Below, in pieces: positions 6,371 to 27,019 of a stretch of 64,000 bases of DNA. Every line of letters starts with the position of its first letter. Positions within the stretch are counted from its first letter, which is position 1. Position numbers and translations under genes: made by a program. Under the pieces are notes generated by a model, which had not been told where the DNA came from, searched no databases, and saw only the letters and a program-made list of their open reading frames with translations. Source of the DNA: Candidatus Alistipes avistercoris (lineage in GTDB: Bacteria; Bacteroidota; Bacteroidia; Bacteroidales; Rikenellaceae); contig DXEE01000037.1 in NCBI GenBank assembly GCA_019115075.1, positions 5,097 through 69,096 on the forward strand, in the 5' to 3' direction.

Positions 6371-6375
6371 CGATG

Positions 6376-6383
6376 CAAATATA
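6376..6383 (-). promoter_or_regulatory. Bacteroidota -7 promoter box (TATATTTG) for the riboswitch-nrdDG transcript
   Basis: Exact TAnnTTTG match on the minus strand, immediately upstream of the first riboswitch helix. Confidence 0.45.
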
Positions 6384-9228: not shown

Positions 9229-9951
9229 TCACAGACCGTCGGAGTCGCGGCAGAGTGCCGTCAGTGCCGTACAGATTTTCCGCGACAACCGGAAACCGCG
9301 GATGCGGTCACAGACAGCCTTTCGGTGGATATCGGTGCCTGCAGCGTTGTAGAACCCCTGCTCCAGAAGCCATCCGGCACACTCCATCGCCCGCTTTCCG
9401 TACATGCCGGCCAATGTGAAGAGGTCGAGCTGGAAGCGAACCCCGGCTTCGTGCAGCCGTCTGTAATCCTTACGTGACATGTAGACATACCGCTCGGGGT
9501 GTGCCAGCAACGGATAATATCCGCGCGAGCGGATCCGGCAAAGCGTCCCCTCGAGGTCCAGCGGAGGATTGAAATAGGAGGTCTCGACCAACAGGTGGTT
9601 ACCGCGTCGTCCGATCGGCAGCAGGTCGTTGCCGTCGAGCCGCTCGTCGAACAGGTTGTCCAGCATGTGTTCTGCCGCCAGGTGGAGTTCGATCCGTCCG
9701 GAATATGCCGTCCGCAACTCTTCGAATTTGCGCTTCAGGCTCTCCGGGGTGTTCGGCATGTCCTCCATGATGTGCGGCGTGAGCCACACGGTCTTCATGC
9801 CGAGCGCTTCGTATCCGTGCAGGATCTCCAGAGCCTCCTCCACACTGCGCACGCCGTCGTCCACGGCAGGCAGGATGTGCGAGTGCCAGTCGGTAAAACC
9901 CTCGAAGAGTCCGCTTTCGGCGAGGGAACAGGAGCGGGTGAAGGGCCACAT
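9229..9951 (-). CDS. PHP-family protein-tyrosine phosphatase (CpsB/YwqE type)
   Basis: FTDWHSHILPAVDDG, LAHPERY and AGTDIH metal-binding motifs of the CpsB/CapC PHP phosphatases. It lies directly downstream of a Wzc-type kinase. Confidence 0.85.
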   Translation of the reverse strand: MWPFTRSCSLAESGLFEGFTDWHSHILPAVDDGVRSVEEALEILHGYEALGMKTVWLTPHIMEDMPNTPESLKRKFEELRTAYSGRIELHLAAEHMLDNLFDERLDGNDLLPIGRRGNHLLVETSYFNPPLDLEGTLCRIRSRGYYPLLAHPERYVYMSRKDYRRLHEAGVRFQLDLFTLAGMYGKRAMECAGWLLEQGFYNAAGTDIHRKAVCDRIRGFRLSRKICTALTALCRDSDGL

Positions 9952-9963
9952 GTGCGGTCGGGG

Positions 9964-12375: not shown

Positions 12376-12421
12376 ATGGTACGGTTGCTTCTTTTTTTGT
12401 TCTTGGGGTTTTGTTGTTCGG

Positions 12422-13237
12422 TTATTTGACGAAAAGGACCGTCACGGTGGTGATCAGCGAGACGAGCGACATCCAGAAGGTGGCCGAGAGTACGTTGTTG
12501 CCGTTCACCGTGGACTGGCGGGCCCGCATCGAGTTCGGTTCGACGTATACGACATCGTCCTGCTGCAGGTAGTATACCGGCGAGTTGTAGAGTTGCTCGG
12601 CCGACCGCAGATCGACGCCGTAGACGCGTTGCTGCCCCTCCACCTCGCGCAGGACGAGCACCTTGTCCCGCTTGCCGAAGATGGTCATGTCGCCGGCCAT
12701 GCTGAGGGCTTCCAGCAGCGTGATGTAGTCCTTGTCGATGCTGTATCGTCCGGGATTTGCCACTTCGCCGAGCACCGAGACGGTGAGGTTCATGAATTCG
12801 ACCGTCACGACCGGATCCTTGATGAGGTTCTGGCTGATGAGTTCGCTTTTGATGTGTGCGGCGATCTCCTCGCGGGTCATGCCGGCCACGTAGACACTGC
12901 CCAGCACGGGAAAGTCGATCGTGCCGTCCTGACGGACCGTATAGCCCGAGATCCCCTGGGAAGAGGAGCCGGCACCTGAATTTTTGGTACCCAGTTGCCG
13001 GGATACGATCGGCAGGTTGAACAGGTCGGCCAGAAGCGGGTCCTTGCTGTTCACGATAATCGAGATCTTGTCTTCGGGCTGTACCTTGACGGTGACCGGG
13101 GTTATCCCCTGGGTGATCTGTTCTCCGGGGCGGACATCCTGAAAATAGGTGATTCGTTCGGTTGAGGCGCACGAACTCAATAGTGCGGCGAGAGAGAACA
13201 TCAGCAGAAAGGCAGGGATTTTCATAATCGAATTCAT
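12422..13237 (-). CDS. wza: outer-membrane polysaccharide export protein (Wza / Poly_export + SLBB), copy 1
   Basis: Signal peptide with Cys (LLSSCAS), then Poly_export-like and SLBB-like sequence (PGRYSIDKDYITLLEALSMAGDMT). Confidence 0.85.
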   Translation of the reverse strand: MNSIMKIPAFLLMFSLAALLSSCASTERITYFQDVRPGEQITQGITPVTVKVQPEDKISIIVNSKDPLLADLFNLPIVSRQLGTKNSGAGSSSQGISGYTVRQDGTIDFPVLGSVYVAGMTREEIAAHIKSELISQNLIKDPVVTVEFMNLTVSVLGEVANPGRYSIDKDYITLLEALSMAGDMTIFGKRDKVLVLREVEGQQRVYGVDLRSAEQLYNSPVYYLQQDDVVYVEPNSMRARQSTVNGNNVLSATFWMSLVSLITTVTVLFVK

Positions 13238-13704
13238 TTCAGGATTAAAACGGATCGACGCTCAAATAAGAAAATATGTGGTTGTTGCATGCAAAACTTC
13301 TGTTTGTGGCTCCGTGTCGGGATGCTGTCGGATTATCCGTCTGAGAGTCTGTAATATCTGGTTTTGTCGAAACCTATATTCCGTTCCTGTATGCACCAAT
13401 AATCCATGCTGTCCGAACTGTCATCAGCACTCATTGTTTGCATATCCTTTCTCTCGGGGGATCCTTATGGCACACCCTTCCGGCGGGCTGCAGTATGCCG
13501 ACGGGCCAAAAGTATCACTTTTCGTGCAGAATAACAAATATTTTGGATAAAATCCGGACGTTTCGCAATGTGCCGATGCGATTGTCGTGCCTGGAAAAAG
13601 ATGGCGCGAATCGGATGTTTGGATGAACGGGCCGTGTGTTTCAGATGTGGAAAAGGTTATTCCGTGCGGCTGAGATCCGGACTTGCATTCCGGCGGCAAC
13701 AAAC

Positions 13705-13734
13705 GAAAAAAGGAGAATCGAAATCGATTCTCCT
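13705..13734 (-). terminator. intrinsic terminator closing the S24-ABC unit
   Basis: AGGAGAATCG (13711-13720) / CGATTCTCCT (13725-13734). On the minus strand a T5 run (13710-13706) follows. It sits 65 nt after the ABC transporter stop. Confidence 0.65.
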
Positions 13735-13798
13735 TCGGATTTCGTTCCCGGTCGGATGCCGGCCCTCGTCCAGCCGTGCGGTTGCCGCTCGGAAGAGC

Positions 13799-15457
13799 TC
13801 ATCGGGTTCGGTCCGATTTTCTTATCCGGATTACCGAATTGCAGAAACGTGCGACCGTATCCCGGTGGGTTACCAGGATAAGCGTCTTTCCATGCAGCCT
13901 GAGGGCGAGGCGCTGCAGGAGCATCTGTTCGGTCGGTTCGTCGAGTGCCGAGGTCGGTTCGTCCAGCAGCAGAATGCCTCCGGGGCGAAGCAGTCCCCGG
14001 GCAATGGCGATGCGTTGTGCCTGTCCTTCACTGAGGCCTGCGCCCTGTTCGCCGCACCGTGTGTTCAGCCCGTCGGGCAGGGACAGAACAAAATCCGCTG
14101 CTGCGGAGTGCAGTGCGGTTTCCATCTGCTCTTCCGTGGCCTGCGGGTTCCCCATCCGCAGATTGTCGCGTATGGTCCCGCTCATCAACGTGTTGCCCTG
14201 CGGTACGTAGGACAGGTTGCATCGTGTGAGCGGAGAGGCGCCTGCTTCACGGGTTGCGTCATAGAATCGGATGGAACCCTTGTCCGGTTGGAGCAGGGCG
14301 AGAATCAACCGGATCAACGTACTTTTCCCGGCACCGGTTTCCCCGATGACGGCAGTCATGCTGCCCGGGGGAAAATCGTGTGAGAAATCGTCGAGTACGA
14401 TCCGACTGCTGCCCGGATAGGTATAGGAAAGGTGCTCGATGCGGATTCCTGGAGTGTGGCTGAGCCGCTGTCGGGTGCCATGCTCTTCCAGCTGTAGAAA
14501 GGTCAGTTCCGCCAGGCGTTCTGCAGCGGTGAAAACCCGGACGAATGCGGGAATATGGCGGCTCAAATCCACCATCGGCCGCTGGATCTGTGCGACCAGT
14601 TGGAGAAATGCCGCCATCATGCCGAACGTCACGGACCCGTCACGCAATCCGAATACGCCCCACAGCAGGGCTGCGGCATAACCGGCCATGAAACCTGCCT
14701 GGACCATCGCCCGGGAGAAGATCGAGAAATCGGTGCGTCGCATGACCCGCTCTTGCAGGTTCGACTGCAGTTCCGTGAGGCGGGCGATGGCCTGTTCCGT
14801 ATATTCGAGCGTGCGGATTAGGATGCGGTGTTGCAGGTGCTCCTGCATGTGGCTCTGGATGGCGCTGTCCGTGTCGCGGATCTCGTGCGACATCCGGCGC
14901 ATCCGCCTCATGTAGCTTTTGCTGAAGAGCAGGGCGACGGGCATGATGAAGACCAGTATGCCGGCCAGGCGCACATCCAGCCGCGCAAGGAAAAACAGAG
15001 CCCCTCCCAACTGGAAAACGGTAATGAAAACGGCGGGAACGGTTCGGCTCAGGGCATCGGTGACGGTCGCCACGTCTTCCTCCAGCCGGTTGAGCAGGTC
15101 TCCCGTATGGAGGGCCTCCCGACCCGACCAGCGGCTCTCCATCAGGTGGATGAACAGGCGGCGATGCAATTCGTTGCGGAGGCTGATCTCCGTGCGGGCA
15201 GCCAGACGGGCTCTTGCCGCCGAGAGCAGTAGCTGGGCGGTAAGACTGCATGCCAGCCATCCCGTGTATGTGGACAGACCGTCGTCCGAAGGCCCGGTGG
15301 CGATATCGATCAGGTGTTTGCACACGTATACGAAAAACAGGGAGACGCCGACATGCAGCACTCCCGTCGATATGCAACCGACGACCGACAGCCGAAACCC
15401 TTCGGATGCGTGCCACAGCCATTTGGCGCACTCCCGTATCCGTATCGACGCCCTCAT
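13799..15457 (-). CDS. ABC exporter, fused permease + ATPase
   Basis: Six-helix N-terminal TMD, Walker A (GETGAGKST), signature (LSEGQAQRIAIARG) and Walker B (ILLLDEPTSALD). Trimmed to the ATG at 15457, which overlaps the S24 peptidase stop (ATGA). No C39 peptidase domain. Confidence 0.85.
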   Translation of the reverse strand: MRASIRIRECAKWLWHASEGFRLSVVGCISTGVLHVGVSLFFVYVCKHLIDIATGPSDDGLSTYTGWLACSLTAQLLLSAARARLAARTEISLRNELHRRLFIHLMESRWSGREALHTGDLLNRLEEDVATVTDALSRTVPAVFITVFQLGGALFFLARLDVRLAGILVFIMPVALLFSKSYMRRMRRMSHEIRDTDSAIQSHMQEHLQHRILIRTLEYTEQAIARLTELQSNLQERVMRRTDFSIFSRAMVQAGFMAGYAAALLWGVFGLRDGSVTFGMMAAFLQLVAQIQRPMVDLSRHIPAFVRVFTAAERLAELTFLQLEEHGTRQRLSHTPGIRIEHLSYTYPGSSRIVLDDFSHDFPPGSMTAVIGETGAGKSTLIRLILALLQPDKGSIRFYDATREAGASPLTRCNLSYVPQGNTLMSGTIRDNLRMGNPQATEEQMETALHSAAADFVLSLPDGLNTRCGEQGAGLSEGQAQRIAIARGLLRPGGILLLDEPTSALDEPTEQMLLQRLALRLHGKTLILVTHRDTVARFCNSVIRIRKSDRTR

Positions 15458-15933
15458 GGATTGCCTGTCGTTTTTGCAGTCTGTCGTCTCATCAGCCGTC
15501 GGCATATGAACAGCAATTCCCTCCGTACCGGCAGCAGCAATCTCCAGACCGTAGCTCGAAACCTTTCCGGGCGGGATGAACAGTCTATCGCACGGCCGTT
15601 GCGGATGATGCGTACAACCGTTGCCAGCACCTCATCCTTGCGGCACTGTTCCACGGCTTGGAGGTTGCTGTCTCCCATCAGCGCAAGGCGCTCCCCTTCT
15701 ATCTGATAGATACGATGCAGTATATAACCTTTCGAGTGCAGCCGAACCAGTACGATATCCCCTGCCGCAATCCGTCCGACCCTGTGTAGCACCACCTGGT
15801 CGCGGCCGTTGGCAATGAAAGGAAACATGCTGTCCCCGCTGGCCCGCAGTGTAACGGACTCTCCTTCGGATAACAGTTTGAGACACTCCTCGAGAAAGAG
15901 GCTATTGTCCAGCAGAAGTTTTTCAGCCTGCAT
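15454..15933 (-). CDS. S24 (LexA/signal-peptidase-like) family serine peptidase
   Basis: RASGDSMFPFI nucleophile motif plus a downstream SKGYILHRI Lys region. The start is set at the ATG at 15933 because the longer ORF (to 16011) runs through a perfect 14-bp hairpin. Confidence 0.7.
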   Translation of the reverse strand: MQAEKLLLDNSLFLEECLKLLSEGESVTLRASGDSMFPFIANGRDQVVLHRVGRIAAGDIVLVRLHSKGYILHRIYQIEGERLALMGDSNLQAVEQCRKDEVLATVVRIIRNGRAIDCSSRPERFRATVWRLLLPVRRELLFICRRLMRRQTAKTTGNP

Positions 15934-15969
15934 TTTCCGGTGTGAGCTTGAAGACCGGGGGCCGATCCG

Positions 15970-16006
15970 GAAACTCCCCTTTTCATGATCCGAAAAGGGG
16001 AGTTTC
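15970..16006 (-). other. perfect 14-bp stem-loop between ompA and the S24 peptidase gene
   Basis: GAAACTCCCCTTTT (15970-15983) / 9-nt loop / AAAAGGGGAGTTTC (15993-16006). No flanking T-tract, so its function is undetermined. Confidence 0.5.
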
Positions 16007-16078
16007 AGCATGCGGACCGGACAGGAGGATATCCGGCAGCCGGGCTTTCGGCCGCCGGACAGGCTCCGGTACCTTTGG

Positions 16079-17275
16079 TTATTTCTTGTTTCGGGTGATC
16101 ACGGCACGGCTCATGCTCGGATCGTCATAGAACATGTTTCCGACTCCGCCCTTGTATTCGATCTCGAGTTGCGACTTGTTCACTCCGAACTCCTTGACCA
16201 GACACTTGTATACGGCTTCGGCGCGGGCCTTGCTTAACCGGTCGTTGCCTTTCTCGCTGCCCGTGCCGGCGTCGGCATATCCGGTGATCGTATATACGGC
16301 CGACGGATCGCCCTGCTTGATGACTTCGGCCATCATGCCGAGATTGACGCGGGCTTCGTTCGAGAGATCGCTTCTGTCGATCTGGAACGTCACCAGATTG
16401 GCCGATGCGATCTGTTTTACGATGATCTGCGCCTCTTGCTGGTTGCCCTTGGCAAGAGCCTCCTCCAGTCGGGCGTTCTCCTCGCTCAGTTTCTCCAAAC
16501 GCTCACGCATGGCATTGATCTGCCCGGCATTGTACACCGTGCGGGTCACTTTTTTGCTGCGGTTCCACCCACGGGGCTTGATCTTGTAGGAGAACCCGAT
16601 GGTTGCAGCCAGCAGGCCTTCGCCGCTGCGGCCTCCCGATTCCCCGTCGAACTCGTCGCTGACGAGCGTGCCGCGGATATCCAGGTTCAGGTCCCAACCG
16701 GCGCTGAGACGGAATGTGTTCAGTACACCGATGTGTCCCGAGGCATCGACCCGTTTGGGATCCTGCGTCGCTTTCATCAGACCTACGCCGGCGTAGGGAA
16801 TGCAGTTGTAGAATCTGTTCTCCTTGTATCCGCTGATGATGTTGGAGAAGTTGAACATGGCGTCGAGATGGAAGTTGTAGTAATTGAACTTCGACTTGTA
16901 GAGGCCCTCGCCCCATCCGTCTACCTGCTCACCGGTCGAATGTGCCGCTCCCCAGCGGGTGGCTCCCTTGATGGAGAGTCCGTTGTATCCGAACCGTACG
17001 CCGATATCGGGCGAGAACCACTTGCCGATGGCTATGTCGAGGGCCGGGGAGAGCCGTTGTCCGAACGGTATCTGCTTGTCGTGGTCGCCGAAGAAGATCT
17101 GTGCGCCGCCGCCTACGCTGACTACCCAGTTGCTCCAGAATCCGTTTGTCTCGACCTTGTGTTTGTCCGTGCTGTATTCCACGGTTTCCGTGATCTCGGC
17201 ATCCTGCTCCGTTTGAGCGTATACCGAACCTGCAGCCACAAGAAAGAGGACTGCCAATAGTATTTTCTTGTTCAT
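16079..17275 (-). CDS. OmpA-family outer-membrane protein (beta-barrel + coiled coil + OmpA_C)
   Basis: Signal peptide (MNKKILLAVLFLVAAGSVYAQ), aromatic-rich barrel region, coiled coil (MRERLEKLSEENARLEEALAK) and a C-terminal OmpA-like peptidoglycan-binding domain (TITGYADAGTGSEKGNDRLSKARAEAV). Confidence 0.85.
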   Translation of the reverse strand: MNKKILLAVLFLVAAGSVYAQTEQDAEITETVEYSTDKHKVETNGFWSNWVVSVGGGAQIFFGDHDKQIPFGQRLSPALDIAIGKWFSPDIGVRFGYNGLSIKGATRWGAAHSTGEQVDGWGEGLYKSKFNYYNFHLDAMFNFSNIISGYKENRFYNCIPYAGVGLMKATQDPKRVDASGHIGVLNTFRLSAGWDLNLDIRGTLVSDEFDGESGGRSGEGLLAATIGFSYKIKPRGWNRSKKVTRTVYNAGQINAMRERLEKLSEENARLEEALAKGNQQEAQIIVKQIASANLVTFQIDRSDLSNEARVNLGMMAEVIKQGDPSAVYTITGYADAGTGSEKGNDRLSKARAEAVYKCLVKEFGVNKSQLEIEYKGGVGNMFYDDPSMSRAVITRNKK

Positions 17276-17360
17276 GTCAAATCGTTTTTGGAACTTCCGT
17301 CCTGCCCCGGGCCGTTATCGGAGGCCCGGAGCGGGAACGGAAGTGAGTCAGATTTCCGAA

Positions 17361-19424
17361 TCAGTTGGTTTTGCGCTGCATCCGGTATTTGTAGTTGTTG
17401 TCGATGATGGCCTGAGGCAGCAGGTCGCCGTAAACCGTATAGCCTGTGTAGTCCTGGCAAACACGGTCGCCCACATAATCCAGCAGTACGATGCCAGTGG
17501 ATCCCGGGGTGCGGTTCTCGTTCATCAGGTAGTTGTATACCGGAAGGTTTACCTCCTGTCCCAGACGTGCATAGGCCGACGAAATGGCCGACCCTCCGGC
17601 GTATCCGGAGCAGTGGTTGATCGTCCAGACGTGGGAGCCCTTTGCCGCCTCGTCGCGGGCGAGATCCAGATATCTCTCCACCGATGCGATTTTGGCGGAG
17701 ATGGATGCATCGACGTTGGACTCGTTGTTTACCTCATAGTAATTCTGGCAATAGAGGATCCAGTCCGTGTGGTGTCCCCACTGGTCGTTCCCGTAATCGA
17801 CATACTGCTCTTTCAGATAGGCCTGCTGGGTGCCCTCCGCATGCGAACCGGGGAAACCGGAAACGAACATCATGCCCGACGGGGCGGTATTGGTGAAATA
17901 GCCATCCGGGTCAGTCCCCTGGTTGGGCCGCATGATGCTCAGAATCTTGCCCCGTGCTTCGCCTATGGTGAGGTCTTTCTTGCAGAGCGACCGCGGCAAT
18001 GCATGGCTCGTGTAGGTCGAGGTTCCCACAAAGTTGTTCATCGCCTTGTTGAACCGACTTTCGGCATTTATTACGGCAAGCCTTTCAGACTCCCATCTTA
18101 TGATGGTTATGATAAATTCTCCGGGATGCTCATTTAGGAACGTATTAAAGGCCTCATATACTTCCTTAAGATCGATATTGCAACTTGCTACACCATGGTA
18201 AATGGGAAGGGCATTGTCGTTTTCCACCAAAAACATCGAAGCCGCCGGTCTTAAATCAAAGCAGCGGATACCCATCTCCAGCTGTTCGGCAATCGTTCGG
18301 GTCTGGCACTTGCCGGAGCTCAGATCGCACGCTCTTGTTGCGGCATCGTGCGTACCCGGGATGGAGAGTTGCGATACATAGATGTCGTCGTCCAGCGGAG
18401 TCATCCAGAGGTTGCCCGTTGCCTCCGTGGGGAACCACGGCAGGGTCAGCTTGGTTTTCGAGCCGGCAGCCAGGTTGATGGGGTTTCCGTTTGCATCCAT
18501 ATTGCCGCCGATGGTTACCTCCTGTACCGTTTCGCCGGTTGCATGGACACGGACCGTTACGGGGTTCTCCGCATCGATAGGCAGCGGCGGCAGGAAGACG
18601 GTGAGCGTAACGGACTGTCCTGCTTCCAGGTCGATGTGGTAATTGTCGCCCTGCTTGACCCGGACGAATGTTGTCTCGGTGTGAGAGACTCCGGTATTGC
18701 CCGCGTTTACGATCGTCCCGTTGGCTATGTCGTACTGGAATTTGCCCTGTCCTGCATCGGGTGACTGCACGTTGTTGTTGATGATGCTGATACCCGTTAT
18801 GGTGACGGTCTCCATGTTGGTGGTTTCACGGCCGCGGACCGTCACTTTGAGCGTGGTCATGATCGGATCGAAGTGCAGCGGCACCTCGTCGATCGGTGTG
18901 GTGGCGAGATGGGCGACCATGTAGGCATTGGTCATGTCGGGAGTACCCATATAGTTTCCGTTTCCGTCGGGCGTTGTGGGAAGCTCGCAGACCTGGTCCA
19001 GATTGATGCTGAACGAGGCGATTCCGTCAGCGACGCTTACCTTGTTGTTGTCTGCGGGATAGACGGCGAAAAAGTTGTGGGTGATGTTGTCTCCGCCCCA
19101 GGCCAATCCTGATTCATTGTACTGAAGCTTGCCTGCATGCTCCTTGTCGGGATCAATCGACTTGATTACCGTGTAGTCGGCCTGTTTCACATCTTCGGCC
19201 TCGTTGCAGAAGATCCGGATCTTGTCCCCGTTGTTCCAGTTGATCTGGAACTCGTTCTCATCATCGTACTCGGTGCGTGTCGTTGTATTGCTCAATGCGA
19301 AGTTCACGGTTGCACCGCTGGTCGGTTTGTTGCCATGTCCGTTGTCAAGATCATCGCTGGAGCATCCGCTGAAGGCTCCGGCGATTGCCAATCCTGCACA
19401 CAGGACTCCAAAATACTGTTTCAT
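17361..19424 (-). CDS. surface lipoprotein: fimbrillin-like N-terminal half fused to a PI-PLC X-domain (PLC-like phosphodiesterase)
   Basis: Trimmed to MKQYFGVLCAGLAIAGAFSGCSSDD (lipobox). The N-terminal half is typical of Bacteroidales fimbrillin-like proteins. The C-terminal half carries LSIPGTHDAATRA...IRCFDLRPA, the PI-PLC X-box catalytic signature. Confidence 0.75.
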   Translation of the reverse strand: MKQYFGVLCAGLAIAGAFSGCSSDDLDNGHGNKPTSGATVNFALSNTTTRTEYDDENEFQINWNNGDKIRIFCNEAEDVKQADYTVIKSIDPDKEHAGKLQYNESGLAWGGDNITHNFFAVYPADNNKVSVADGIASFSINLDQVCELPTTPDGNGNYMGTPDMTNAYMVAHLATTPIDEVPLHFDPIMTTLKVTVRGRETTNMETVTITGISIINNNVQSPDAGQGKFQYDIANGTIVNAGNTGVSHTETTFVRVKQGDNYHIDLEAGQSVTLTVFLPPLPIDAENPVTVRVHATGETVQEVTIGGNMDANGNPINLAAGSKTKLTLPWFPTEATGNLWMTPLDDDIYVSQLSIPGTHDAATRACDLSSGKCQTRTIAEQLEMGIRCFDLRPAASMFLVENDNALPIYHGVASCNIDLKEVYEAFNTFLNEHPGEFIITIIRWESERLAVINAESRFNKAMNNFVGTSTYTSHALPRSLCKKDLTIGEARGKILSIMRPNQGTDPDGYFTNTAPSGMMFVSGFPGSHAEGTQQAYLKEQYVDYGNDQWGHHTDWILYCQNYYEVNNESNVDASISAKIASVERYLDLARDEAAKGSHVWTINHCSGYAGGSAISSAYARLGQEVNLPVYNYLMNENRTPGSTGIVLLDYVGDRVCQDYTGYTVYGDLLPQAIIDNNYKYRMQRKTN

Positions 19425-19447
19425 GTCCAATCGTTTTTCGTTGTTAC

Positions 19448-19627
19448 TTAATCCCATGAATCCAACTCGAACGAACCCCCATTCTCCTGTTGGTTGATAT
19501 CGACATTGGCTTTTTCGTCGTCCTGGACGACTTTGTCCTTGGAGGAGGCACAGATGCCGCTTTCCAGGCTTACCTGAGTCCTCGTGGTCCGCGGAGACTC
19601 GTACGTTCCGTTTTTCTTTTTTTCCAT
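19448..19627 (-). CDS. small hydrophilic acidic protein (59 aa), hypothetical
   Basis: MEKKKNGTYESPRTTRTQVSLESGICASSKDKVVQDDEKANVDINQQENGGSFELDSWD. It is preceded by a strikingly AT-rich 63-nt spacer, its third codon positions look GC-biased like neighbouring genes, and it stops 23 nt before the lipoprotein ATG. No homolog recognised. Confidence 0.35.
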   Translation of the reverse strand: MEKKKNGTYESPRTTRTQVSLESGICASSKDKVVQDDEKANVDINQQENGGSFELDSWD

Positions 19628-19690
19628 TGTGAATAAAAATAAAGAGTTGATATGAATTGAGTTAATTGAGTTGATCATGCATTTGCCGGA

Positions 19691-22030
19691 TCATTTTTTT
19701 TTCGATTTTTTCCCGTATCCGTACCCATATCCGTAACGTCCGTAACCGTAACCGGTCCGGGTCGGATCGACTCCGTTGAGTACCAGGGCCATGTTTTTCA
19801 GTTTCCTGCCTTCGTACATGGCTTCGATGTCGGGCAGCTGGCGCCGGTCGAGCCGTCCTGCCCGAATGACGAAGATCGTCAGATCGGCGATGCGGTTGGC
19901 GATGCTGGCATCGGCAATGATACCGACCGGGACGTTGTCGGCGATGATCAGGTCGTAGCGGCTGCGCAGCGCGTCGAACAGTTCGTCCAGACGGCTGTCC
20001 ATCAACAGTTCGGCCGGGTTGGGAGCCGTTGCGCCGAACGATATGACATCGAAATGTTCGCGGTGCTGGATGATTTCGTCCACCGTCACCGACGGATCAG
20101 CCAGGTAATTGGTGACTCCCGTCCTGCGGATCCCGAAATGACGGCTCAACGTGCCCTTCCGGATGTCCAGATCGACAAGCACCTCCCGCTTTTTGGCATA
20201 GACGAAACTCATGGCCAGATTGCTGGCGATGAAGGTTTTGCCGGCGCCCTCGTTGAACGAGGTGAATGTGATGACCTGCGATGGCCGGTCCTTGCGCGAC
20301 ATGAAGGCCATGTTGGTCCTTAGAACGCGGAATGCTTCAGCCACGATACCGTCCTCGTCCGTTTTGTCGGTGTCGGCATCTCCTCTTTTCCGGCGTTTGC
20401 CTGCTTCGCGGTCCAACGGAATCTCGCCGAGAAAGGGTACGCTCAGCGCCTTTTCGACCTCCTTGCGGCTGCGGACCCGTGTGTCCATGAAAAGTACGGT
20501 CAGACACGATACTCCCGGAATGGCCAGTCCGACGATCAGACCCAGCAGCAGAATGCGGTTGCGGTTGGGCGATATCGGCTGCGTACTGCCTTCGGCTCCG
20601 TCGATGACGCGGGCGTTGTTGTCGGCCATCGCCTGCGACAGGGCATTCTCCTCGCGTTTGTTGAGCAGGTACAGATACAGGGTCTCCTTGATCTTTTGCT
20701 GCCGTTCGATGGAGAGCATCTGACGCTCTTTGGTCGGGATGGAGGTCACGCGGTCCTGCGCCTGCAGTTCGCGGCTTTGTGCGTCGTTGCGTTTTACGTT
20801 CAGCGTCACGATCATGTTGTCCACGGCGCGGATGATGTTCTGCTTCATGGCCCGCAGGGAGTTGTTCAGTTCCTGGACGACCGGGTTGTTTTCGCTGCTG
20901 TCATCCACCAGAGCGTCGCGTTTGAGTTTGGCCGTATTGTAGAGACTGATCTGGCTCTCGATGTTCATGTCGCCGATTCCCGTGTTGGAAGGGATCAGGT
21001 CGGTGTCCTTGGTCGGATCGGTCAGGTAGTCCTTGATGAATTGGGCCAGACGGAGCTGCGTCTCCAGTTCCAGGGCGTCGATGCTGTATTTTTGCGATTC
21101 GGTCATGTACATCCCCGCCGACGAGGCGATGTCTACGATCTGGTTCCGCTGTTTGAACGACTCGAGGTCTGACTCCACGCTGCCCAGTTCGCTCTCGATG
21201 ATGATCAGACGCTCGTTGATGAAATCGGCCGTATTGATCGCCACCTGGTTCTTGTCCCGTATGGCCTCTTCGTTATAGACGAAGATGAGCGTGTTGAGTA
21301 CATCTTCGGCCCGGGCCGCCGAGTTGTCCTTCAGGGCAAGGGTGAGGATGGATGACTCCTCCTCTTCCTGCTGTATTCCCAGAGCTCCCCGGTAATAGTT
21401 CACCATCGACTCCAATGAGAACTTGCGGACCCGGATGGGGATGTTCTGCCAGGAGGCTCCGTAGTAATTGGTCGGTGTTGCGACGACGCGCATTCCTTTG
21501 CTGATCTCCACCGTGTCGTTCAGGGAAACGGTACGGCTGGTTCCGTCGCCGATTCCGGAGCATTCGGACAGCTCGACCGTGTTTTTGTCCTTCGGGGTTA
21601 CGGTCAGAGAGAACCGCTGTTCGGGCAGGGCGTCCGGGAAACTCAGAAGTACGGGCGACTGGGTGTAGAGTTCATTGAGGCGCAATCCCTCCTCGACCTG
21701 ATAACTCACATCGGCATGGAGGCGCTGCACCACCTCGCGCATAAGCTTCTTGGAGCGGAACTGCAGGATTTCGTTGGCGACGTTCACTTTATTGATGATG
21801 TTGTCGAAACGGTCCAGTCCCGTGGTGGAGGTTTTGTTGGACGGGTCCTTGATGATGACGGTCGCCGAACGGTAGTAGACGAAAGGCGAACGGGCGTAGT
21901 TGAACCATGCGATCCCGACGCATACGGCGATCGACAGGGCGAACCATCTCCATTTGGAGACAAGGTATACGATCAGGTCCATCAGGTTGAGACCCTGATC
22001 GTTCCCAGCGGTTGAGGTGTTGGTCTGCAT
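19691..22030 (-). CDS. wzc: polysaccharide co-polymerase / BY-kinase (Wzc type), copy 2
   Basis: Same architecture as copy 1: Walker A (SFNEGAGKTF) and a C-terminal Tyr cluster (GYGYGRYGYGYGYG). Confidence 0.9.
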   Translation of the reverse strand: MQTNTSTAGNDQGLNLMDLIVYLVSKWRWFALSIAVCVGIAWFNYARSPFVYYRSATVIIKDPSNKTSTTGLDRFDNIINKVNVANEILQFRSKKLMREVVQRLHADVSYQVEEGLRLNELYTQSPVLLSFPDALPEQRFSLTVTPKDKNTVELSECSGIGDGTSRTVSLNDTVEISKGMRVVATPTNYYGASWQNIPIRVRKFSLESMVNYYRGALGIQQEEEESSILTLALKDNSAARAEDVLNTLIFVYNEEAIRDKNQVAINTADFINERLIIIESELGSVESDLESFKQRNQIVDIASSAGMYMTESQKYSIDALELETQLRLAQFIKDYLTDPTKDTDLIPSNTGIGDMNIESQISLYNTAKLKRDALVDDSSENNPVVQELNNSLRAMKQNIIRAVDNMIVTLNVKRNDAQSRELQAQDRVTSIPTKERQMLSIERQQKIKETLYLYLLNKREENALSQAMADNNARVIDGAEGSTQPISPNRNRILLLGLIVGLAIPGVSCLTVLFMDTRVRSRKEVEKALSVPFLGEIPLDREAGKRRKRGDADTDKTDEDGIVAEAFRVLRTNMAFMSRKDRPSQVITFTSFNEGAGKTFIASNLAMSFVYAKKREVLVDLDIRKGTLSRHFGIRRTGVTNYLADPSVTVDEIIQHREHFDVISFGATAPNPAELLMDSRLDELFDALRSRYDLIIADNVPVGIIADASIANRIADLTIFVIRAGRLDRRQLPDIEAMYEGRKLKNMALVLNGVDPTRTGYGYGRYGYGYGYGKKSKKK

Positions 22031-22049
22031 CTTTCAGAACATTTGTCCG

Positions 22050-22850
22050 TTATTTGAGTACCCACAGGATGGAGCATACGGCCGTTATGACGGACAGCAG
22101 CGTGCGTCCGATCTCCCAGCCCCGGCTCTGGGTGTCTCTGCGGTAGTATTTCTTGTCCATCTCCACATAGACGATGTCGTTTTGCTGGAGATAGAAACAG
22201 GGGGAGTCGAAGATTTCCCGGCTGCGCAGGTCGTGCATGAAGATCTGCCGGCCTCCGTCCATTTCGCGGATGACAGCCACCCGGTCCACCCGGGCTTTCG
22301 AGGTCAGGTCTCCGGCTTTGGCGATGGCTTCGAGCAGCGTCACCCGGTCTCCGTCGGCCGTGAAGGTGCCGTTGTGTCCGACTGCCCCCATGACGGTGTA
22401 TCTGAAATTCAGGAATTCGATCGATACCAACGGATCCTTCATGTAGTTGCCCTCTTCGATCCGGGTTTTGATCAGGTCCCGGACCTCGCTGACCGTCATG
22501 CCGTCCACGTGCAGTTTGCCCAGGATGGGAAAGTCGATGTCGCCCTCCACGTCCACGCGGTATCCGGTCTCCCGCACCTTGCTCGGCGATTCGGTGTTCA
22601 CGTCGCCGTCGGCACCCACGCGGAAGGTTTCGCCGTAGATGTTGAACGGGATGGCAAGTTCGGGATTCTTGCAGCTCACCGTGATGCTCAGCCGGTCGTC
22701 CCGGTGAATGGTGGCCTCATACCGGGTGTCGATGGGATAGTTCTCCCCCACCTGCATGTCCTGCAGATAGACGTAGTTTTTGCGCGAGCAGGAGGGTGCC
22801 AGCAGCAATACGACAAGCAGGCTTGCCCATAGGCAGAATGATTTGTTCAT
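22050..22850 (-). CDS. wza: outer-membrane polysaccharide export protein (Wza type), copy 2
   Basis: Lipoprotein-type signal (LLLAPSCS) and Poly_export/SLBB-like sequence (GTFTADGDRVTLLEAIAKAGDLT). Confidence 0.85.
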   Translation of the reverse strand: MNKSFCLWASLLVVLLLAPSCSRKNYVYLQDMQVGENYPIDTRYEATIHRDDRLSITVSCKNPELAIPFNIYGETFRVGADGDVNTESPSKVRETGYRVDVEGDIDFPILGKLHVDGMTVSEVRDLIKTRIEEGNYMKDPLVSIEFLNFRYTVMGAVGHNGTFTADGDRVTLLEAIAKAGDLTSKARVDRVAVIREMDGGRQIFMHDLRSREIFDSPCFYLQQNDIVYVEMDKKYYRRDTQSRGWEIGRTLLSVITAVCSILWVLK

Positions 22851-22858
22851 GTTTTATT

Positions 22859-23773
22859 TCAGTGTTGTTGTTTCATTGGTTGCCGGATCTTGAGCAGGCT
22901 CCGGTAGCAAAGGATGGCCGCATCGCTGTCCGGACGGCATTCGAGTATGCCGGTCGGCACGCGTTCGGCCAGGCGTACCAGCGTATCGTAGAGGCGAGCC
23001 CGCAGATCCTGATCCTGGCTGATGACCGAACACCCCGGATAGAGGGCGACGAAAGCGTCGGCTCCTTCCTGCCTGTGGAACCTGTTCTCCGGGGCCTGGA
23101 TCAGCCGCACCATGCCGCCGATGGGGAAACTCTGCGGTTTGTAGCAAGGGGTCTTCCCACTCCATGGGGTTCCGTGGGCGTAGGCCGTATCGCCCTGGAT
23201 GCGGATGGTCGGATTGTCGTCGTTGAGCAGTTCGGTGCCGGGCAGATGGCGTAGCCAGAGAGCCGAGTGGGTGCTTTTCCCCGTACCGCTTCGCCCCATG
23301 AAGAGAAAGGCCTCGCCGTTCCGGGATACGGCCGATGCATGGAATGCCAGTGCGTCGTGGTAGAGAATGGCCTGTGAATAGGCGATCCGCAGCAGCGAGG
23401 AGAGTACGTGTCCGGCATCTTCGTCCCGTGGAGAGATTCCGATCCGGATTTGTGTGAAGGAGTTGTCGGCCCGCATGACATGGTCCTGCCCGTCCGGCCT
23501 GGTACGCAGCCTGACTTCGTATTGTCCGGCCCGGAAGAAGAGGCGTACCGATCCCAGGTCATTGACCGTCTCCTCCAGCAACGAACCGGTCTCCTCTTCC
23601 CGACAAGTCTCGGAGTTGGTGCCGACCGTACATGCGAACAGTTGCGGTGTGCCTTTCCGCGGATTGCAGGCAAACGGCCTGAAGGAAGGCAGCAGGGCCC
23701 CGGCGTCCCACCCTTCCGGAAGTTGCACGGACAGGATGAATCCGGCTATGCAGAAACGGAGCGTTTTCATCAT
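22859..23773 (-). CDS. HPr-kinase-related P-loop kinase (HprK C-terminal-domain-like)
   Basis: FHASAVSRNGEAFLFMGRSGTGKSTHSALWL P-loop followed by ELLNDDNP, as in the HprK/P catalytic domain. Trimmed to the ATG at 23773, overlapping the upstream stop (ATGATGA). Confidence 0.75.
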   Translation of the reverse strand: MMKTLRFCIAGFILSVQLPEGWDAGALLPSFRPFACNPRKGTPQLFACTVGTNSETCREEETGSLLEETVNDLGSVRLFFRAGQYEVRLRTRPDGQDHVMRADNSFTQIRIGISPRDEDAGHVLSSLLRIAYSQAILYHDALAFHASAVSRNGEAFLFMGRSGTGKSTHSALWLRHLPGTELLNDDNPTIRIQGDTAYAHGTPWSGKTPCYKPQSFPIGGMVRLIQAPENRFHRQEGADAFVALYPGCSVISQDQDLRARLYDTLVRLAERVPTGILECRPDSDAAILCYRSLLKIRQPMKQQH

Positions 23774-24867
23774 CCGAGTTGTCCTTTGGCCAGATCCGCA
23801 AAGATCCAGAATGCCTCTTTGGGAGCGTATGCGGCTGCAAAACGCAGGTTTCGGCAGAACGAACGGGCCGTATGCATTTTGTGTATCCAACCGGGCCGGC
23901 CGCCTGTCTCCCTGTCCGACCGGTACTGGCCGAAGTTGCCGCCCTTCCATACGATGTCGAGCAGAACACGAGCATCCGGTGCCGTCTCTTCATAAGGCAG
24001 ACAGGCGGCCGGGAGCCCGAGACAATCCACCAGAAAGGCGTGCAACAGCGGATTCCATCGGGCAAGGCCCCATCTCCGGCAATAGTTCTTCATCTCCTCG
24101 GGGTTCACCTCCCGGTGCAACCGGTAGCAGGCTCGCGCCATGTCGCACAGTTGCCGCAGCCCGATTCCCCTGCCCAACGTGTGTTTGAGAATATGCAGGT
24201 CCAGAAGCAGCAGGTTCAGAAACGGGGAGGGAACCGTCATCGGCTCCAATTCCTGCGCGAGCCGCATGTGGATACAGCCCTTTGTGCGGGCCAGTTTATC
24301 CGCTTCGTGTTGCAGGAACGGATTGTGCAGATCCAACAGGCGTACATGATGTTCGACCTCCAGACCGTGCCAGAGGTAGAAGATGCTCCGGTCCGGCATC
24401 TTGCGAATCCGTATTCCGTTCTGCCGCACGAGCTGTTCGGCTCGTTTGGCCGCCTCCGGATCCTGAAAGCACAGGTCGATGTCTCCGCATTCACGCAGCA
24501 AGGGGGATTCGTAGAGACAGGCCACACCCTGCCCTTTCTGCAGAACAGGGTCGATTCCCTGGGCCCGGAATTCGCCGTAGAGCTCCGAGAGCGCGCGATT
24601 CATCTCCAGATTCCTGCGCTCGATGGCATCCACTCTTGCCGTCCAACGGATCAGCAGGGAGTCTGTCGGCAGCATCGTATCGGGCAGATACTGCATTCCC
24701 CGGAACACGATACCCGTTACGGTTTGTCGTCGGGCCTGCCGGAACAGCTTTTCCCACTCGTCGTCCGACAGGGGGAAACATGCGGGGTCGTCTATTTCGC
24801 GCTCCCACAGCCCCGAACGCAGAATGGCCAGCAATGCGGTATGTATTTTCCTTTCCGGTGCGTCCAT
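23770..24867 (-). CDS. uncharacterised nucleotidyltransferase family protein (NTP_transf_5-like)
   Basis: GDIDLCF (GxDxD-type pol-beta NTase motif) in a protein of about 365 aa. The sequence resembles the PF14907-type proteins that accompany PqqD/HprK-like genes. Trimmed to MDAPERK at 24867. Confidence 0.7.
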   Translation of the reverse strand: MDAPERKIHTALLAILRSGLWEREIDDPACFPLSDDEWEKLFRQARRQTVTGIVFRGMQYLPDTMLPTDSLLIRWTARVDAIERRNLEMNRALSELYGEFRAQGIDPVLQKGQGVACLYESPLLRECGDIDLCFQDPEAAKRAEQLVRQNGIRIRKMPDRSIFYLWHGLEVEHHVRLLDLHNPFLQHEADKLARTKGCIHMRLAQELEPMTVPSPFLNLLLLDLHILKHTLGRGIGLRQLCDMARACYRLHREVNPEEMKNYCRRWGLARWNPLLHAFLVDCLGLPAACLPYEETAPDARVLLDIVWKGGNFGQYRSDRETGGRPGWIHKMHTARSFCRNLRFAAAYAPKEAFWIFADLAKGQLG

Positions 24868-24887
24868 TGGCTCTCCTCCGACCGGAA

Positions 24888-25169
24888 TCAATCGATAAGA
24901 CCGAACGTCCGCCATTCGGACAATTGCCGCTCCACGTCTCGGAGGGCCGTGTCGGGATCGACTCCGAACGTCCGGCTCAACCGGTCCGTCAGCTCCTCCG
25001 TCGTACAACCGTCCTCCGCTATCTGTTCCCACAGCCAGGCAGCCGTGCGGTTCAGGCTGTATACGTTGCTCATGTTCACATTTCCGGCGCAGGCTTCAAC
25101 GATCATGTATTGATTGCCGATCCTGCGCAACATCAATCCGGCTTTTGCGCGTATCCTGCTCGAAGTCAT
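24888..25169 (-). CDS. PqqD-family protein (RiPP recognition element-like)
   Basis: 93 aa. LRRIGNQYMIVEA...VYSLNRTAAWLWEQI...TEELTDRLSRTFGVDPDTALRDVERQLSEW matches the PqqD winged-helix pattern. Confidence 0.75.
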   Translation of the reverse strand: MTSSRIRAKAGLMLRRIGNQYMIVEACAGNVNMSNVYSLNRTAAWLWEQIAEDGCTTEELTDRLSRTFGVDPDTALRDVERQLSEWRTFGLID

Positions 25170-25175
25170 TGCCTT

Positions 25176-25850
25176 TTAGAATTTCTTCCCCGAGAGAATC
25201 GAAACGACCGTCAGGTAGATGATCTTCAGGTCCAGCCAGAAGGTGCGGTTGTAGAGATAGTCCAGATCCATCCTGAGGCGTTCGAGCATCTTGTCCATTG
25301 TATCGGTATACCCGTTGTACAACGTGGCGAGGGAGAAGAGCCCGGGACGCAGCCGGTACAGCAGTTCGTAGTTGGCGTTGATGGACGTAATCTGGTCCAC
25401 GAAGAACTTGCGTTCGGGACGGGGGCCCACAAAACTCATTTTGCCGGTCAGGACGTTCCACAGTTGAGGCAGCTCGTCCAGATGATGTTCGCGCAGGAAT
25501 CGTCCGATGCGGGTGAGCCGTTCGTCGTCCTTCCTGCACAGAACGGGATGTCCGTCCTGTTCCGAGGAGACCTCCATCGAGCGGAATTTGTAGAGCGTGA
25601 ACGGCCGGCCTCCGTATCCGATCCGCTCCTGTTTGAATATGGCCGGACCTCCGTCTTCGTGTTTGATCAACAGATAGATGGCTGCAAACGCGGGCGAAAA
25701 TACGATCAGTCCCAGTATGCTGCCGAACAGGTCGAACGAACGTTTGGCGAAAGCAGCCCACTTCGTCATCTCGCCTCGGTGGCGGCAATCGCGGGCGGTC
25801 AAGCCTACGTCAATGGCCTCGACGATGAATTTTGTCGAATCACTTCTCAT
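25176..25850 (-). CDS. undecaprenyl-phosphate sugar phosphotransferase (Bac_transf, initiating enzyme)
   Basis: FKRSFDLFGSILGLIVFSP...GPAIFKQERIGYGGRPFTLYKFRSM...LDELPQLWNVLTGKMSFVGPRP. The true start may be the internal MTKW at 25769. Confidence 0.9.
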   Translation of the reverse strand: MRSDSTKFIVEAIDVGLTARDCRHRGEMTKWAAFAKRSFDLFGSILGLIVFSPAFAAIYLLIKHEDGGPAIFKQERIGYGGRPFTLYKFRSMEVSSEQDGHPVLCRKDDERLTRIGRFLREHHLDELPQLWNVLTGKMSFVGPRPERKFFVDQITSINANYELLYRLRPGLFSLATLYNGYTDTMDKMLERLRMDLDYLYNRTFWLDLKIIYLTVVSILSGKKF

Positions 25851-26958
25851 AACGATATAGTTTTAAACAATTCTCGATCATCCGTTTTTTTGAAAACAAC
25901 GTGTTGTAGCGCTCCCGGGCCCCCGACGCATAGCGTCGGTATGCCGCTTCATCCTCCATGATGGTTTCGATGGCTTTGGCCAGCTCCTGCGGGTTGCCCG
26001 GTGTGACATTGAGCCCCGACTCTCCGTGGGCATTGACCCAGGAGACTCCCGACCGGGGGATCCTGGTGGCAACGACGGGTTTGCCGCAGGACATGGCCTC
26101 GATCTGTACGATGCCGAACGCCTCGGTTTTCTGCACACTGCTCAGACAGAATACATCACAAGCCCCGTAATAGGAGGACAGTTCTTCATCGGCGATGCGG
26201 CCGAGCAGTTCGACCTTCCCCTGCAGTCCCAGGTTGTCAATCTCTTTTTCCAGGGGGTCTCTCAGGGGACCCGAACCGCCGATCAGCACGACATAGTCGT
26301 CGTTCAGATACCTGGCGGCAGCCACCAGATGGCGGAATCCTTTGTAGGCGACCAGCCGGCCCAGCGAAAAGACAATCTTCCGATTCCCGTAGCGGGTCCT
26401 GATCTTCTGCACGGCCTCGGGATCGGGCCGTATCGGATCCGTGCCTATGGGCAGGCAGACGGTCTTGGCCCGCACCTTGCGCAGAGAGGGCGATCCGTCC
26501 AGGTATGCGGGCGAGGTGCCCACAATCAGGTCGGCCCGGCGCAACAGCCAGGATTGCAACGGTTTGTAGAACTTCAGCAGAAACCGTTGCTTCTGGATGT
26601 CGCTGTGCCAGTGCAGGATCACCCGACCCCGGTAGTTTGACAGGAACAGAGCGAGACCGGCCATCGGATCGGGGTGGTGCACGTGGATGACGTGATACGT
26701 CCCGCAGGTTTTTCGCAGGGTGCGGATCATGGCCGGGGAGATCATTGTCGATGCCGCCTTGAACCAGCTGCGGCAGCAAATGATCCGGGCGTGTTCGTTT
26801 ACGGGGATGATGCCGCCGGAGCCCGTTGCTGCGGCGCACATCATGTCACAGTCTACATCTTGTTCGGACAACCCGATCATCAAATCGTACGCAACCTTCT
26901 CCACCCCACCGAGAATCGGATAAAATTTGCCCAACTGCAGAACTTTCGGATTCTTCAT
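25840..26958 (-). CDS. glycosyltransferase family 4
   Basis: Trimmed to MKNPKVLQLGKFYPILGGVEKV. Carries the GT-B EX7E region (TEAFGIVQIEAMSCGKPVVAT). Confidence 0.85.
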   Translation of the reverse strand: MKNPKVLQLGKFYPILGGVEKVAYDLMIGLSEQDVDCDMMCAAATGSGGIIPVNEHARIICCRSWFKAASTMISPAMIRTLRKTCGTYHVIHVHHPDPMAGLALFLSNYRGRVILHWHSDIQKQRFLLKFYKPLQSWLLRRADLIVGTSPAYLDGSPSLRKVRAKTVCLPIGTDPIRPDPEAVQKIRTRYGNRKIVFSLGRLVAYKGFRHLVAAARYLNDDYVVLIGGSGPLRDPLEKEIDNLGLQGKVELLGRIADEELSSYYGACDVFCLSSVQKTEAFGIVQIEAMSCGKPVVATRIPRSGVSWVNAHGESGLNVTPGNPQELAKAIETIMEDEAAYRRYASGARERYNTLFSKKRMIENCLKLYRYEK

Positions 26959-27019
26959 AGAGCATTTCCTGATTGGAACAAATGGACGATATCGGTTCGG
27001 AACGTCAGCAGCGGTTCCG

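Follow-up and report, generated by a model that had tools for sequence, protein, structure and literature searches.

Within a 64,000-nucleotide stretch of DNA from Candidatus Alistipes avistercoris (Bacteroidota; Rikenellaceae; assembly GCA_019115075.1, contig DXEE01000037.1, positions 5,097 to 69,096 of the forward strand), hereafter the window, we analysed the minus-strand genes at positions 13799–25169, which form the 3′ end of a capsule operon. We consider it probable that they encode a Bacteroidota pathway for a linear phosphorylated RiPP (a peptide made on the ribosome and modified after its translation) of the LPP type, inherited as a unit with a Wza–Wzc export pair of its own. The LPPs, linear polyphosphorylated peptides, are a RiPP family of Bacillota described through LppA/K/B/S/D/N of Paenibacillus alginolyticus (Popov et al., Nat Commun 2026, PMC13381572), and five proteins make up their core: the peptidase LppS, the RiPP recognition element (RRE) LppB, the HprK-like kinase LppK, the NTP transferase LppN and the MsbA-like pump LppD (PMC13381572).

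An initial annotation of this DNA, made from the letters alone, had found no described function for such a combination of genes, a view now outdated by the publication in 2026 of the five-enzyme set and its precursor, in Bacillota only and with no biological role (PMC13381572). Its remark that a core enzyme is absent is likewise misleading, because in the published family it is the HprK-like kinase that installs the class-defining modification (PMC13381572).

Enzymes of a probable phosphorylated-peptide pathway

Profile searches upheld the assignments of the initial annotation, namely a PqqD-family protein, an NTP_transf_5 nucleotidyltransferase, an HprK/ScmC-like kinase, Wza, Wzc, OmpA, an S24-type peptidase and an ATP-binding cassette (ABC) exporter (Table 1). 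The models that label the published LPP core in its supplementary data (NTP_transf_5, PqqD, TIGR02228, TIGR02203 and TIGR04249/TIGR04352/TIGR04355; PMC13381572) also match all five enzyme families of the window. TIGR04249, TIGR04352 and TIGR04355 are the top specific matches of the kinase, though weak, and its AlphaFold2 model (predicted local distance difference test score of 88.9) matches phosphoenolpyruvate carboxykinases and the HprK/P of L. casei. Its Walker A motif (S162-G-T-G-K-S-T) and N184-D-D are invariant across about 82 relatives, and the nucleotidyltransferase motif G128-D-I-D131 is found in 46 of 46 aligned relatives; judged by sequence, both enzymes retain intact catalytic motifs and are predicted to be active. 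A protein 95% identical to the kinase, recorded from an 'uncultured Alistipes sp.' (WP_299101241.1), bears the RefSeq name 'phosphoenolpyruvate carboxykinase', a misleading label that reflects the shared P-loop fold only.

We built hidden Markov models (HMMs) of LppS, LppB and LppA, each from the nine Bacillota sequences in Supplementary Data 1 of PMC13381572. The LppS HMM matched a single one of the 1316 open reading frames (ORFs) of the window, the S24 ORF, at about 47–48 bits, against 31 bits for the Pfam S24 model PF00717, and it matched 49 S24 ORFs in related loci. Among the NCBIfam models TIGR02228 is the best match of the peptidase, under its cut-off. In a joint alignment, the residues G33, S35, M36, P38, H73, R74, G87, D88 and N90 are invariant in the 49 Bacteroidota relatives and in nine of nine LppS sequences, with S35, H73 and D88 aligned to the catalytic residues of LppS, an enzyme that requires LppB, cuts after T-1 and is inactivated by the mutations S29A, H68A and D93A (PMC13381572). 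On this alignment the peptidase is homologous to LppS, and the shared Ser/His/Asp residues therefore mark it as a peptidase of the signal peptidase I (SpI) type and rule out the LexA-like Ser/Lys identity that the S24 label might suggest.

The LppB HMM, in turn, has the PqqD ORF as its only match in the window, and the closest relatives of this RRE are those accompanying SpI-like peptidases of Paludibacter, Dehalobacter and Ruminococcus. Sequence searches of the PDB with the RRE and the peptidase gave no significant match (TbiB1, E = 0.48; LexA, E = 0.16) and did not recover the LppB–leader structure. The exporter scores under the equivalog cut-offs of both TIGR02203 and TIGR02204. A 4-nt overlap joins its gene to that of the peptidase and would couple their translation; the Paludibacter protein WP_013444635.1, a peptidase fused to an ABC exporter, fits this arrangement.

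A conserved short peptide as the likely precursor

The small ORF between wzc2 and the lipoprotein gene had been correctly located but left unassigned in the initial annotation; it is now the probable precursor peptide. More than 20 loci encode a relative of its 59-aa product at the corresponding place; when 22 of these relatives were aligned, Y9, P12 and E22 proved invariant and S29 nearly so. The consensus, KKxYExPxTxxTxVELExG[FI][CM]xxS, is followed by a variable acidic or polar tail that usually ends in W-[DES] or F-[DNE]. Searched with a profile, the protein database yielded 180 relatives at E ≤ 0.01, none with a Pfam domain and all of the named ones called 'hypothetical'; one belongs to Phocaeicola dorei. 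In that P. dorei locus (L091; locus numbers of this form are our own), a called 35-aa gene at 9897–10004 overlaps the 65-aa peptide gene and lies just upstream of it, and may represent either another small peptide or an error of gene calling.

The published precursor LppA carries the motif YxxPxVLxHQxIxFETxxS (PMC13381572). When the two families were compared by hhalign (P = 0.0029), their leaders aligned in register with a one-residue deletion, bringing together KKxYxxP and a hydrophobic-x-hydrophobic-E-x element. A relaxed LppA-style pattern matched 19 of 37,182 ORFs of the related loci, all 19 beside the cluster and on its strand, and within the window it matched the small ORF alone; the pattern was relaxed after the peptides had been seen, and these counts therefore show specificity, not independence. 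Taken by its sequence and position, the ORF at 19448–19627 is likely to be the substrate of the pathway. No convincing YxxP precursor was found within 2.5 kb of the compact cassettes described below (L034, L036, L040 and L041) or of the loci that lack Wzc; the precursor of the compact cassettes is either located elsewhere or of a different type.

Gene neighbourhoods across the Bacteroidota

One genome per species was scanned, the query being an alignment of kinase relatives, and at least 594 stretches were found to encode such a relative. We retrieved 80 loci, the best matches to the window kinase, and annotated them with HMMs built from the window proteins. They span Bacteroidaceae, Prevotellaceae, Muribaculaceae, Alistipes, 'Cryptobacteroides', Dysgonomonadaceae, Sphingobacterium and Pedobacter, and fall into three layouts. 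The window type runs from the initiating sugar transferase (Bac_transf) through PqqD, nucleotidyltransferase, kinase, Wza, Wzc, small ORF, lipoprotein or lipoproteins, OmpA and S24 peptidase to the ABC exporter. The compact type consists of S24 peptidase, PqqD, nucleotidyltransferase, ABC exporter and kinase, followed directly by Wza and Wzc (Pedobacter L034, Sphingobacterium L041, L036 and L040), and in the third type kinase, S24 peptidase and PqqD, with the nucleotidyltransferase and exporter optional, stand without Wza and Wzc.

Of the 40 loci whose flanks extend 8 kb or more to either side, 98% have PqqD and 70% the S24 peptidase, the latter figure an underestimate because in the window-type layout its gene lies near the edge of the flank. 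The same gene set was reached from three independent starting points (the kinase, Wzc2 and the small-peptide relative of P. dorei), in agreement with the proposal of the initial annotation that the PqqD–nucleotidyltransferase–kinase trio and the S24/ABC pair form one peptide-pathway unit tied to wza/wzc; in other genomes, too, trio and pair are linked to each other and to wza/wzc.

The nucleotidyltransferase accompanies Wzc in 38 loci, occurs without it in seven and is missing beside it in two, and 33 loci have neither (Fisher p = 5e-13, kinship ignored). The seven include two truncated contigs and one distant nucleotidyltransferase. We also considered whether the genes after PqqD in the Wzc-less loci were diverged nucleotidyltransferases, and rejected this: Pfam shows them to be unrelated housekeeping genes, PHO4, NrdD, an esterase and a flippase among them. 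In several loci with only kinase, S24 peptidase and PqqD, the next gene encodes a PHO4-family phosphate transporter of about 770 aa (L045 11713–14067, L047 11804–14101 and probably L042 and L051), which is possibly meaningful for a phosphorylating system, or a matter of chance.

A Wza–Wzc pair that appears to be inherited with the peptide genes

The window holds two Wza–Wzc pairs. The pair within the peptide genes (wza2–wzc2) has no adjacent cpsB, whereas a second complete set (wza1–wzc1–cpsB, minus strand, 9229–13237) lies past the terminator and a 561-nt spacer (49% G+C), its cpsB encoding a PHP-type phosphatase. Wza2 and Wza1 share 37% identity, and Wzc2 and Wzc1 share 40%. In the translation of Wzc2 the Walker A, A′ and B motifs (GAGKT, VLVDLDIRKG and LIIADNVP) are intact, with a Tyr-rich tail, YGYGRYGYGYGYG.

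Of the ORFs adjacent to kinase genes, 40 of 40 Wzc and 43 of 46 Wza score higher against copy 2 than against copy 1, those of Pedobacter and Sphingobacterium included. This resemblance suggests that the Wza2–Wzc2 pair was inherited together with the peptide genes, an argument built on scores against the two copies and not on a phylogeny. Wzc2 orthologues with 100% and 77% identity have this set of genes around them; the best 120 matches of the Wzc2 protein search are all at least 76% identical, a range that does not reach Wzc proteins unlinked to peptide genes.

The lipoprotein, which the initial annotation had described as phospholipase C-like, indeed matches PF13149 (Mfa_like_1) and PF00388 (PI-PLC-X). 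Its slot is a variable accessory position, taken by two Mfa-like proteins in L003 and by other proteins in L091. At the locus of the 77%-identity Wzc2 orthologue (L088, 15153–17786; also L089 and L090), it holds an 829-aa protein without a Pfam match and an 877-aa protein of the CotH family of atypical kinases. An OmpA gene lies downstream of Wzc in 25 of the 80 loci.

Weighing the evidence

Several observations weigh against reading the region as an LPP-type pathway with its own export pair. For all the agreement in register, the hhalign probability for the small peptide and LppA is only 10.8%, and the LppA HMM gives the peptide 1.9 bits, which is not significant; we therefore claim a resemblance at the level of the motif, not proven homology. 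The conserved Ser lies about six residues past the predicted cleavage site, as against three in LppA. In pairwise comparisons with the sequence similarity network (SSN) clusters of the LPP study, the RRE scores 24–37 bits against the RREs of clusters 8, 4 and 9 and 6–19 bits against LppB, and the peptidase 53–70 bits against cluster 4, 43 against cluster 9 and 12–33 against cluster 1. By these scores, which are pairwise and not a phylogeny, both window proteins appear closer to the uncharacterised sister clades (clusters 4, 9 and 8) than to the LPPs proper. The 80 loci, as best matches to one kinase, are phylogenetically non-independent. In about 40% of the sample, kinase, S24 peptidase and PqqD stand without nucleotidyltransferase, Wza or Wzc, and four loci have the five-gene cassette without Wzc. 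In L088, finally, the linked Wza–Wzc pair is the only one of its capsule locus and may therefore be a plain capsule exporter.

The Wzc-less loci imply that the peptide core can work without Wza and Wzc, and they lend weight to an explanation that we hold to be possible though on the unlikely side: the same peptide pathway has no mechanistic link to the export pair, and the cluster merely resides in, and is co-regulated with, the capsule operon. Wza2 and Wzc2 would then export polysaccharide only, and the peptide would reach the periplasm or vesicles by the ABC pump alone. The sole pair of L088, shared by L089 and L090, speaks for this, as does the Bacillota core, which functions in a heterologous host devoid of capsule genes, where LppK polyphosphorylates Ser3 of the core peptide (PMC13381572). 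Mere residence fits less well with the interleaved gene order that is kept across families, with the compact cassette that abuts wza–wzc in Sphingobacteriia or with a nucleotidyltransferase whose presence tracks Wzc; nor does it account for the grouping of adjacent Wza and Wzc with copy 2 even in Pedobacter, in a window that has a complete second set next door. LppN, moreover, showed no activity without partners from outside the core (PMC13381572).

A more radical alternative does away with the peptide pathway: the trio would modify a polysaccharide or regulate Wzc, the S24/ABC pair would be unrelated, and the small ORF would be a chance or unrelated reading frame. The missing LppA HMM match, the compact cassettes with no precursor found beside them and a final product that is not established even for the published LPPs are all compatible with it. 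It is nonetheless very improbable in our view: the small ORF is conserved as a protein across more than 20 loci, its YxxP being invariant, the peptidase is homologous to an enzyme proven to cut leaders in dependence on an RRE, and in most loci the kinase gene adjoins both S24 peptidase and PqqD.

A predicted route to the product and its significance

For the LPP-type pathway that we favour, the following sequence of steps can be proposed. The 59-aa peptide, whose conservation and motif are observed, would be translated, and its Y9-x-x-P12 leader would be bound by the PqqD-type RRE, by analogy with LppB and the LppA leader, for which a crystal structure and mutants identify YxxP as a known RRE-binding motif (PMC13381572). 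The HprK-like kinase, like LppK and PsmK, would add at least one phosphate to a conserved Ser just after the leader, probably S28 or S29, and the NTP_transf_5 enzyme may extend this phosphate, most likely with a sugar, by analogy with PsmN. The Ser/His/Asp SpI-like peptidase would cut off the leader near L21-E22-S23, the residues aligned to the F-E-T site at which LppA is cleaved, and the core would then leave through the inner membrane by way of the coupled ABC exporter. Wzc2 and Wza2, OmpA and the variable lipoprotein might then bring the product through the outer membrane or keep it there, or might act on a peptide-borne glycan; this is the least supported step, suggested by co-inheritance only.

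A bolder version, which we think rather doubtful, casts the phosphorylated Ser in the role of undecaprenyl phosphate, as a soluble equivalent that is made on the ribosome and primes an exported glycan. NTP_transf_5, followed by the glycosyltransferases of the locus, would build a sugar or glycan on the Ser-(poly)phosphate and the leader would be removed; a passage across the whole envelope would be built from the ABC pump, Wzc2 and Wza2, much as in capsule systems that combine an ABC transporter, a polysaccharide co-polymerase (PCP) and an outer-membrane polysaccharide export (OPX) protein, to deliver the peptide–phosphate–glycan to the surface, where OmpA and the PI-PLC-like lipoprotein could tether or release it. 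If true, the conjugate would represent a novel class of capsule or surface polymer with a RiPP as its primer, and this reading would explain both the presence of LPP clusters in the capsule loci of two phyla and the silence of LppN outside that context.

The enzyme logic of such pathways is already known, since 2026 only, from work that described LPPs as restricted to Bacillota and found no biological role for them (PMC13381572). New here are the wide presence of this logic in Bacteroidota, contrary to that restriction, a distinct precursor family, a peptidase and RRE of sister clades, and the interleaving with a co-inherited Wza/Wzc pair, OmpA and a lipoprotein. Full-text literature searches found no paper joining PqqD, Wzc and Bacteroid*, and for LPP terms and for HprK-like kinase they returned PMC13381572 only. 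The hosts that encode the kinase include gut Alistipes, Phocaeicola dorei, Prevotella and Muribaculaceae as well as soil Sphingobacterium and Pedobacter, and the company of the nucleotidyltransferase and the co-inherited Wza/Wzc pair in capsule operons offers a functional lead for the peptides. In gut Bacteroidales, capsule loci influence resistance to phages, interaction with the immune system and colonisation, and a peptide component hidden in them would therefore matter. Genetically tractable hosts make the product, the role of the nucleotidyltransferase and the placement in capsule loci directly testable.

Operon layout and surroundings

The gene positions, gaps and overlaps of the initial annotation were reproduced when recomputed from the coordinates, save that ten ORFs, not eleven, follow the sugar transferase, the last being the ABC exporter; on public contigs of this organism, genes called independently agree with these. 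The transferase is separated from PqqD by 6 nt, PqqD from the nucleotidyltransferase by 20 nt, the kinase from wza2 by 8 nt, wza2 from wzc2 by 19 nt, the small ORF from the lipoprotein gene by 23 nt and the latter from ompA by 85 nt, and the nucleotidyltransferase and kinase genes share 4 nt. The 63 nt between wzc2 and the small ORF are AT-rich, as had been noted (30% G+C, in a window of about 58–60%). In the 145-nt gap between ompA and the peptidase gene (15934–16078), the hairpin reported earlier is present, with a stem of about 14 bp (GAAACTCCCCTTTTC...AAAAGGGGAGTTTC) and no T-run; it may be an RNA processing or stability element within the operon.

The unit had been said to leave no room for a terminator before 13734, and the only strong terminator-like site on the minus strand is indeed at 13736–13709, 63 nt past the stop codon of the exporter, with none inside the unit. 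A sigma-70 promoter scan returned three sites, against 6.9 in shuffled sequences, with a model unsuited to Bacteroidota promoters.

Table 1. Features of the peptide-pathway unit and its boundaries, in window coordinates.
Feature	Position	Strand	Basis
Initiating phosphoglycosyl transferase (Bac_transf)	25176–25850	minus	PF02397 on the same gene in L001
Discrete RRE, PqqD family, predicted YxxP-leader binder	24888–25169	minus	PF05402 55.7 bits; LppB HMM 27 bits
NTP_transf_5 nucleotidyltransferase-fold enzyme, LppN/PsmN type	23770–24867	minus	PF14907 138 bits
HprK/ScmC-like P-loop serine kinase, LppK/PsmK type	22859–23773	minus	PF27840 (ScmC); weak TIGR04249, TIGR04352, TIGR04355
Wza2, outer-membrane polysaccharide export protein	22050–22850	minus	Poly_export + SLBB
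Wzc2, polysaccharide co-polymerase / bacterial tyrosine kinase (PCP-2a)	19691–22030	minus	GNVR + AAA_31, TIGR01007
Candidate precursor, 59 aa, MEKKKNGTYESPRTTRTQVSLESGICASSKDKVVQDDEKANVDINQQENGGSFELDSWD	19448–19627	minus	Conserved YxxP...LE...S leader
Lipoprotein, Mfa-like N-terminal part + PI-PLC-X-like phosphodiesterase part	17361–19424	minus	PF13149, PF00388
OmpA-family outer-membrane, peptidoglycan-binding protein	16079–17275	minus	PF00691 61 bits
SpI-like (archaeal/endoplasmic reticulum-type) leader peptidase, LppS-like; predicted catalytic S35, H73, D88	15454–15933	minus	LppS HMM
MsbA-like half-ABC exporter	13799–15457	minus	ABC_membrane + ABC_tran; TIGR02203 228 bits, TIGR02204 224 bits
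Intrinsic-terminator-like hairpin	13709–13736	minus	12-bp stem, then TTTTTTCGTTTGT; best-scoring site in 12000–27000

The surroundings show the typical make-up of a capsule locus in Bacteroidales: an integrase and a NusG/UpxY-like gene stand at the head, then come a flippase, a pyruvyl transferase and glycosyltransferases. The Bac_transf gene directly upstream of the peptide module is the final 'ordinary' capsule biosynthesis gene, and it adjoins PqqD in most loci of the window type. At the head of the locus, a perfect 16-nt inverted repeat (40932–40947 / 41082–41097), each arm itself a small hairpin, surrounds 134 nt between the NusG/UpxY-like gene (40164–40733) and a tyrosine-recombinase gene (41138–42337); it may act as an invertible promoter and so render the capsule-plus-peptide operon phase variable. 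A tRNA gene (42885–42957, minus strand; Rfam, 73.6 bits) lies beside the integrase. Among the glycosyltransferase genes, 27020–28075 (minus strand) encodes a 351-aa protein with several short helix-turn-helix and sigma-70 region-4-like matches, which is kept in the same species (L001 and L084). A cobalamin riboswitch (6187–6383, minus strand, 113 bits) stands upstream of the ORF at 3929–6319 (about 720–796 aa), for which no Pfam match was found at E ≤ 0.001.

Comparison with known systems

The kinase, nucleotidyltransferase, PqqD-type RRE and ABC exporter are shared with lasso-peptide clusters of the paeninodin and pseudomycoidin type (PadeK, PsmK and PsmN). In pseudomycoidin, PsmK, with a DD motif, polyphosphorylates the C-terminal Ser, and PsmN, an NTP_transf_5 protein with a DxD motif, is needed for the attachment of one or two hexoses to this phosphate; mutants in the DD and DxD motifs are inactive, and in vitro activity of PsmN is unproven. 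The unit differs in having neither a lasso cyclase nor a B2 cysteine protease, and with its serine SpI-like peptidase the product is expected to be linear. No Asn-synthetase-like macrolactam cyclase and no transglutaminase-like B2 protease occurs among the window genes between 9 and 47 kb or among the Pfam-labelled relatives, and we rejected membership of the lasso peptides on this basis. That the unit is the non-functional remnant of a lasso cluster that has lost its cyclase and B2 protease would account for just this accessory set; it is barely plausible all the same, the absence of both families extending to the relatives, the catalytic motifs being invariant across some 50–80 of these, at least 594 genomic stretches encoding a kinase relative and a dedicated non-lasso peptidase being present.

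Two further systems share components with the unit. The HPr-rel-A system is defined by TIGR04352, TIGR04353 and PF14907, and membership was rejected with scores of 22.2 bits for TIGR04352 (cut-off 200) and 24.4 bits for TIGR04353 (cut-off 35). In the SynChlorMet cassette, ScmC occurs with radical-SAM/SPASM maturases as partners; here TIGR04249 reaches 22.9 bits against a cut-off of 125, and the Pfam scan of the window genes showed no radical-SAM family, so that this assignment was rejected as well. Compared with the Wza/Wzc pairs of Bacteroidales capsular polysaccharide loci, which come with CpsB, the Wza2–Wzc2 pair has the standard domains, motifs and locus setting; it differs in lacking an adjacent CpsB and in its apparent co-inheritance with peptide-pathway genes.

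The nearest counterparts of the window peptidase (43–70 bits) and RRE (24–37 bits) are the RRE-associated SpI-like peptidases, with their RREs, of Dehalobacter, Anaerocolumna, Ruminococcus and Paludibacter, whose SSN clusters 4, 9 and 8 appear in Supplementary Data 1 of PMC13381572 without being analysed in that paper. As a system, the unit most resembles the LPPs. It shares all five of their protein types, a short candidate precursor that resembles LppA at the level of the motif in its YxxP and hydrophobic-x-hydrophobic-E element, a conserved Ser after the leader, a variable precursor tail often ending near a Trp, the lack of a cyclase and a place in a capsule locus beside a tyrosine autokinase, the setting also reported for LPP clusters in Bacilli (PMC13381572). 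It differs in belonging to Bacteroidota, in a leader one residue shorter and a Ser at about +6 instead of +3, in genes that are split and interleaved with wza, wzc, lipoprotein and ompA, and in a peptidase and RRE that, by pairwise scores, fall outside the LPP clades (SSN cluster 1 and the LPP RRE clade) and nearer to clusters 4, 9 and 8. The diderm envelope of the host would, unlike that of the LPP producers, therefore call for an outer-membrane step.

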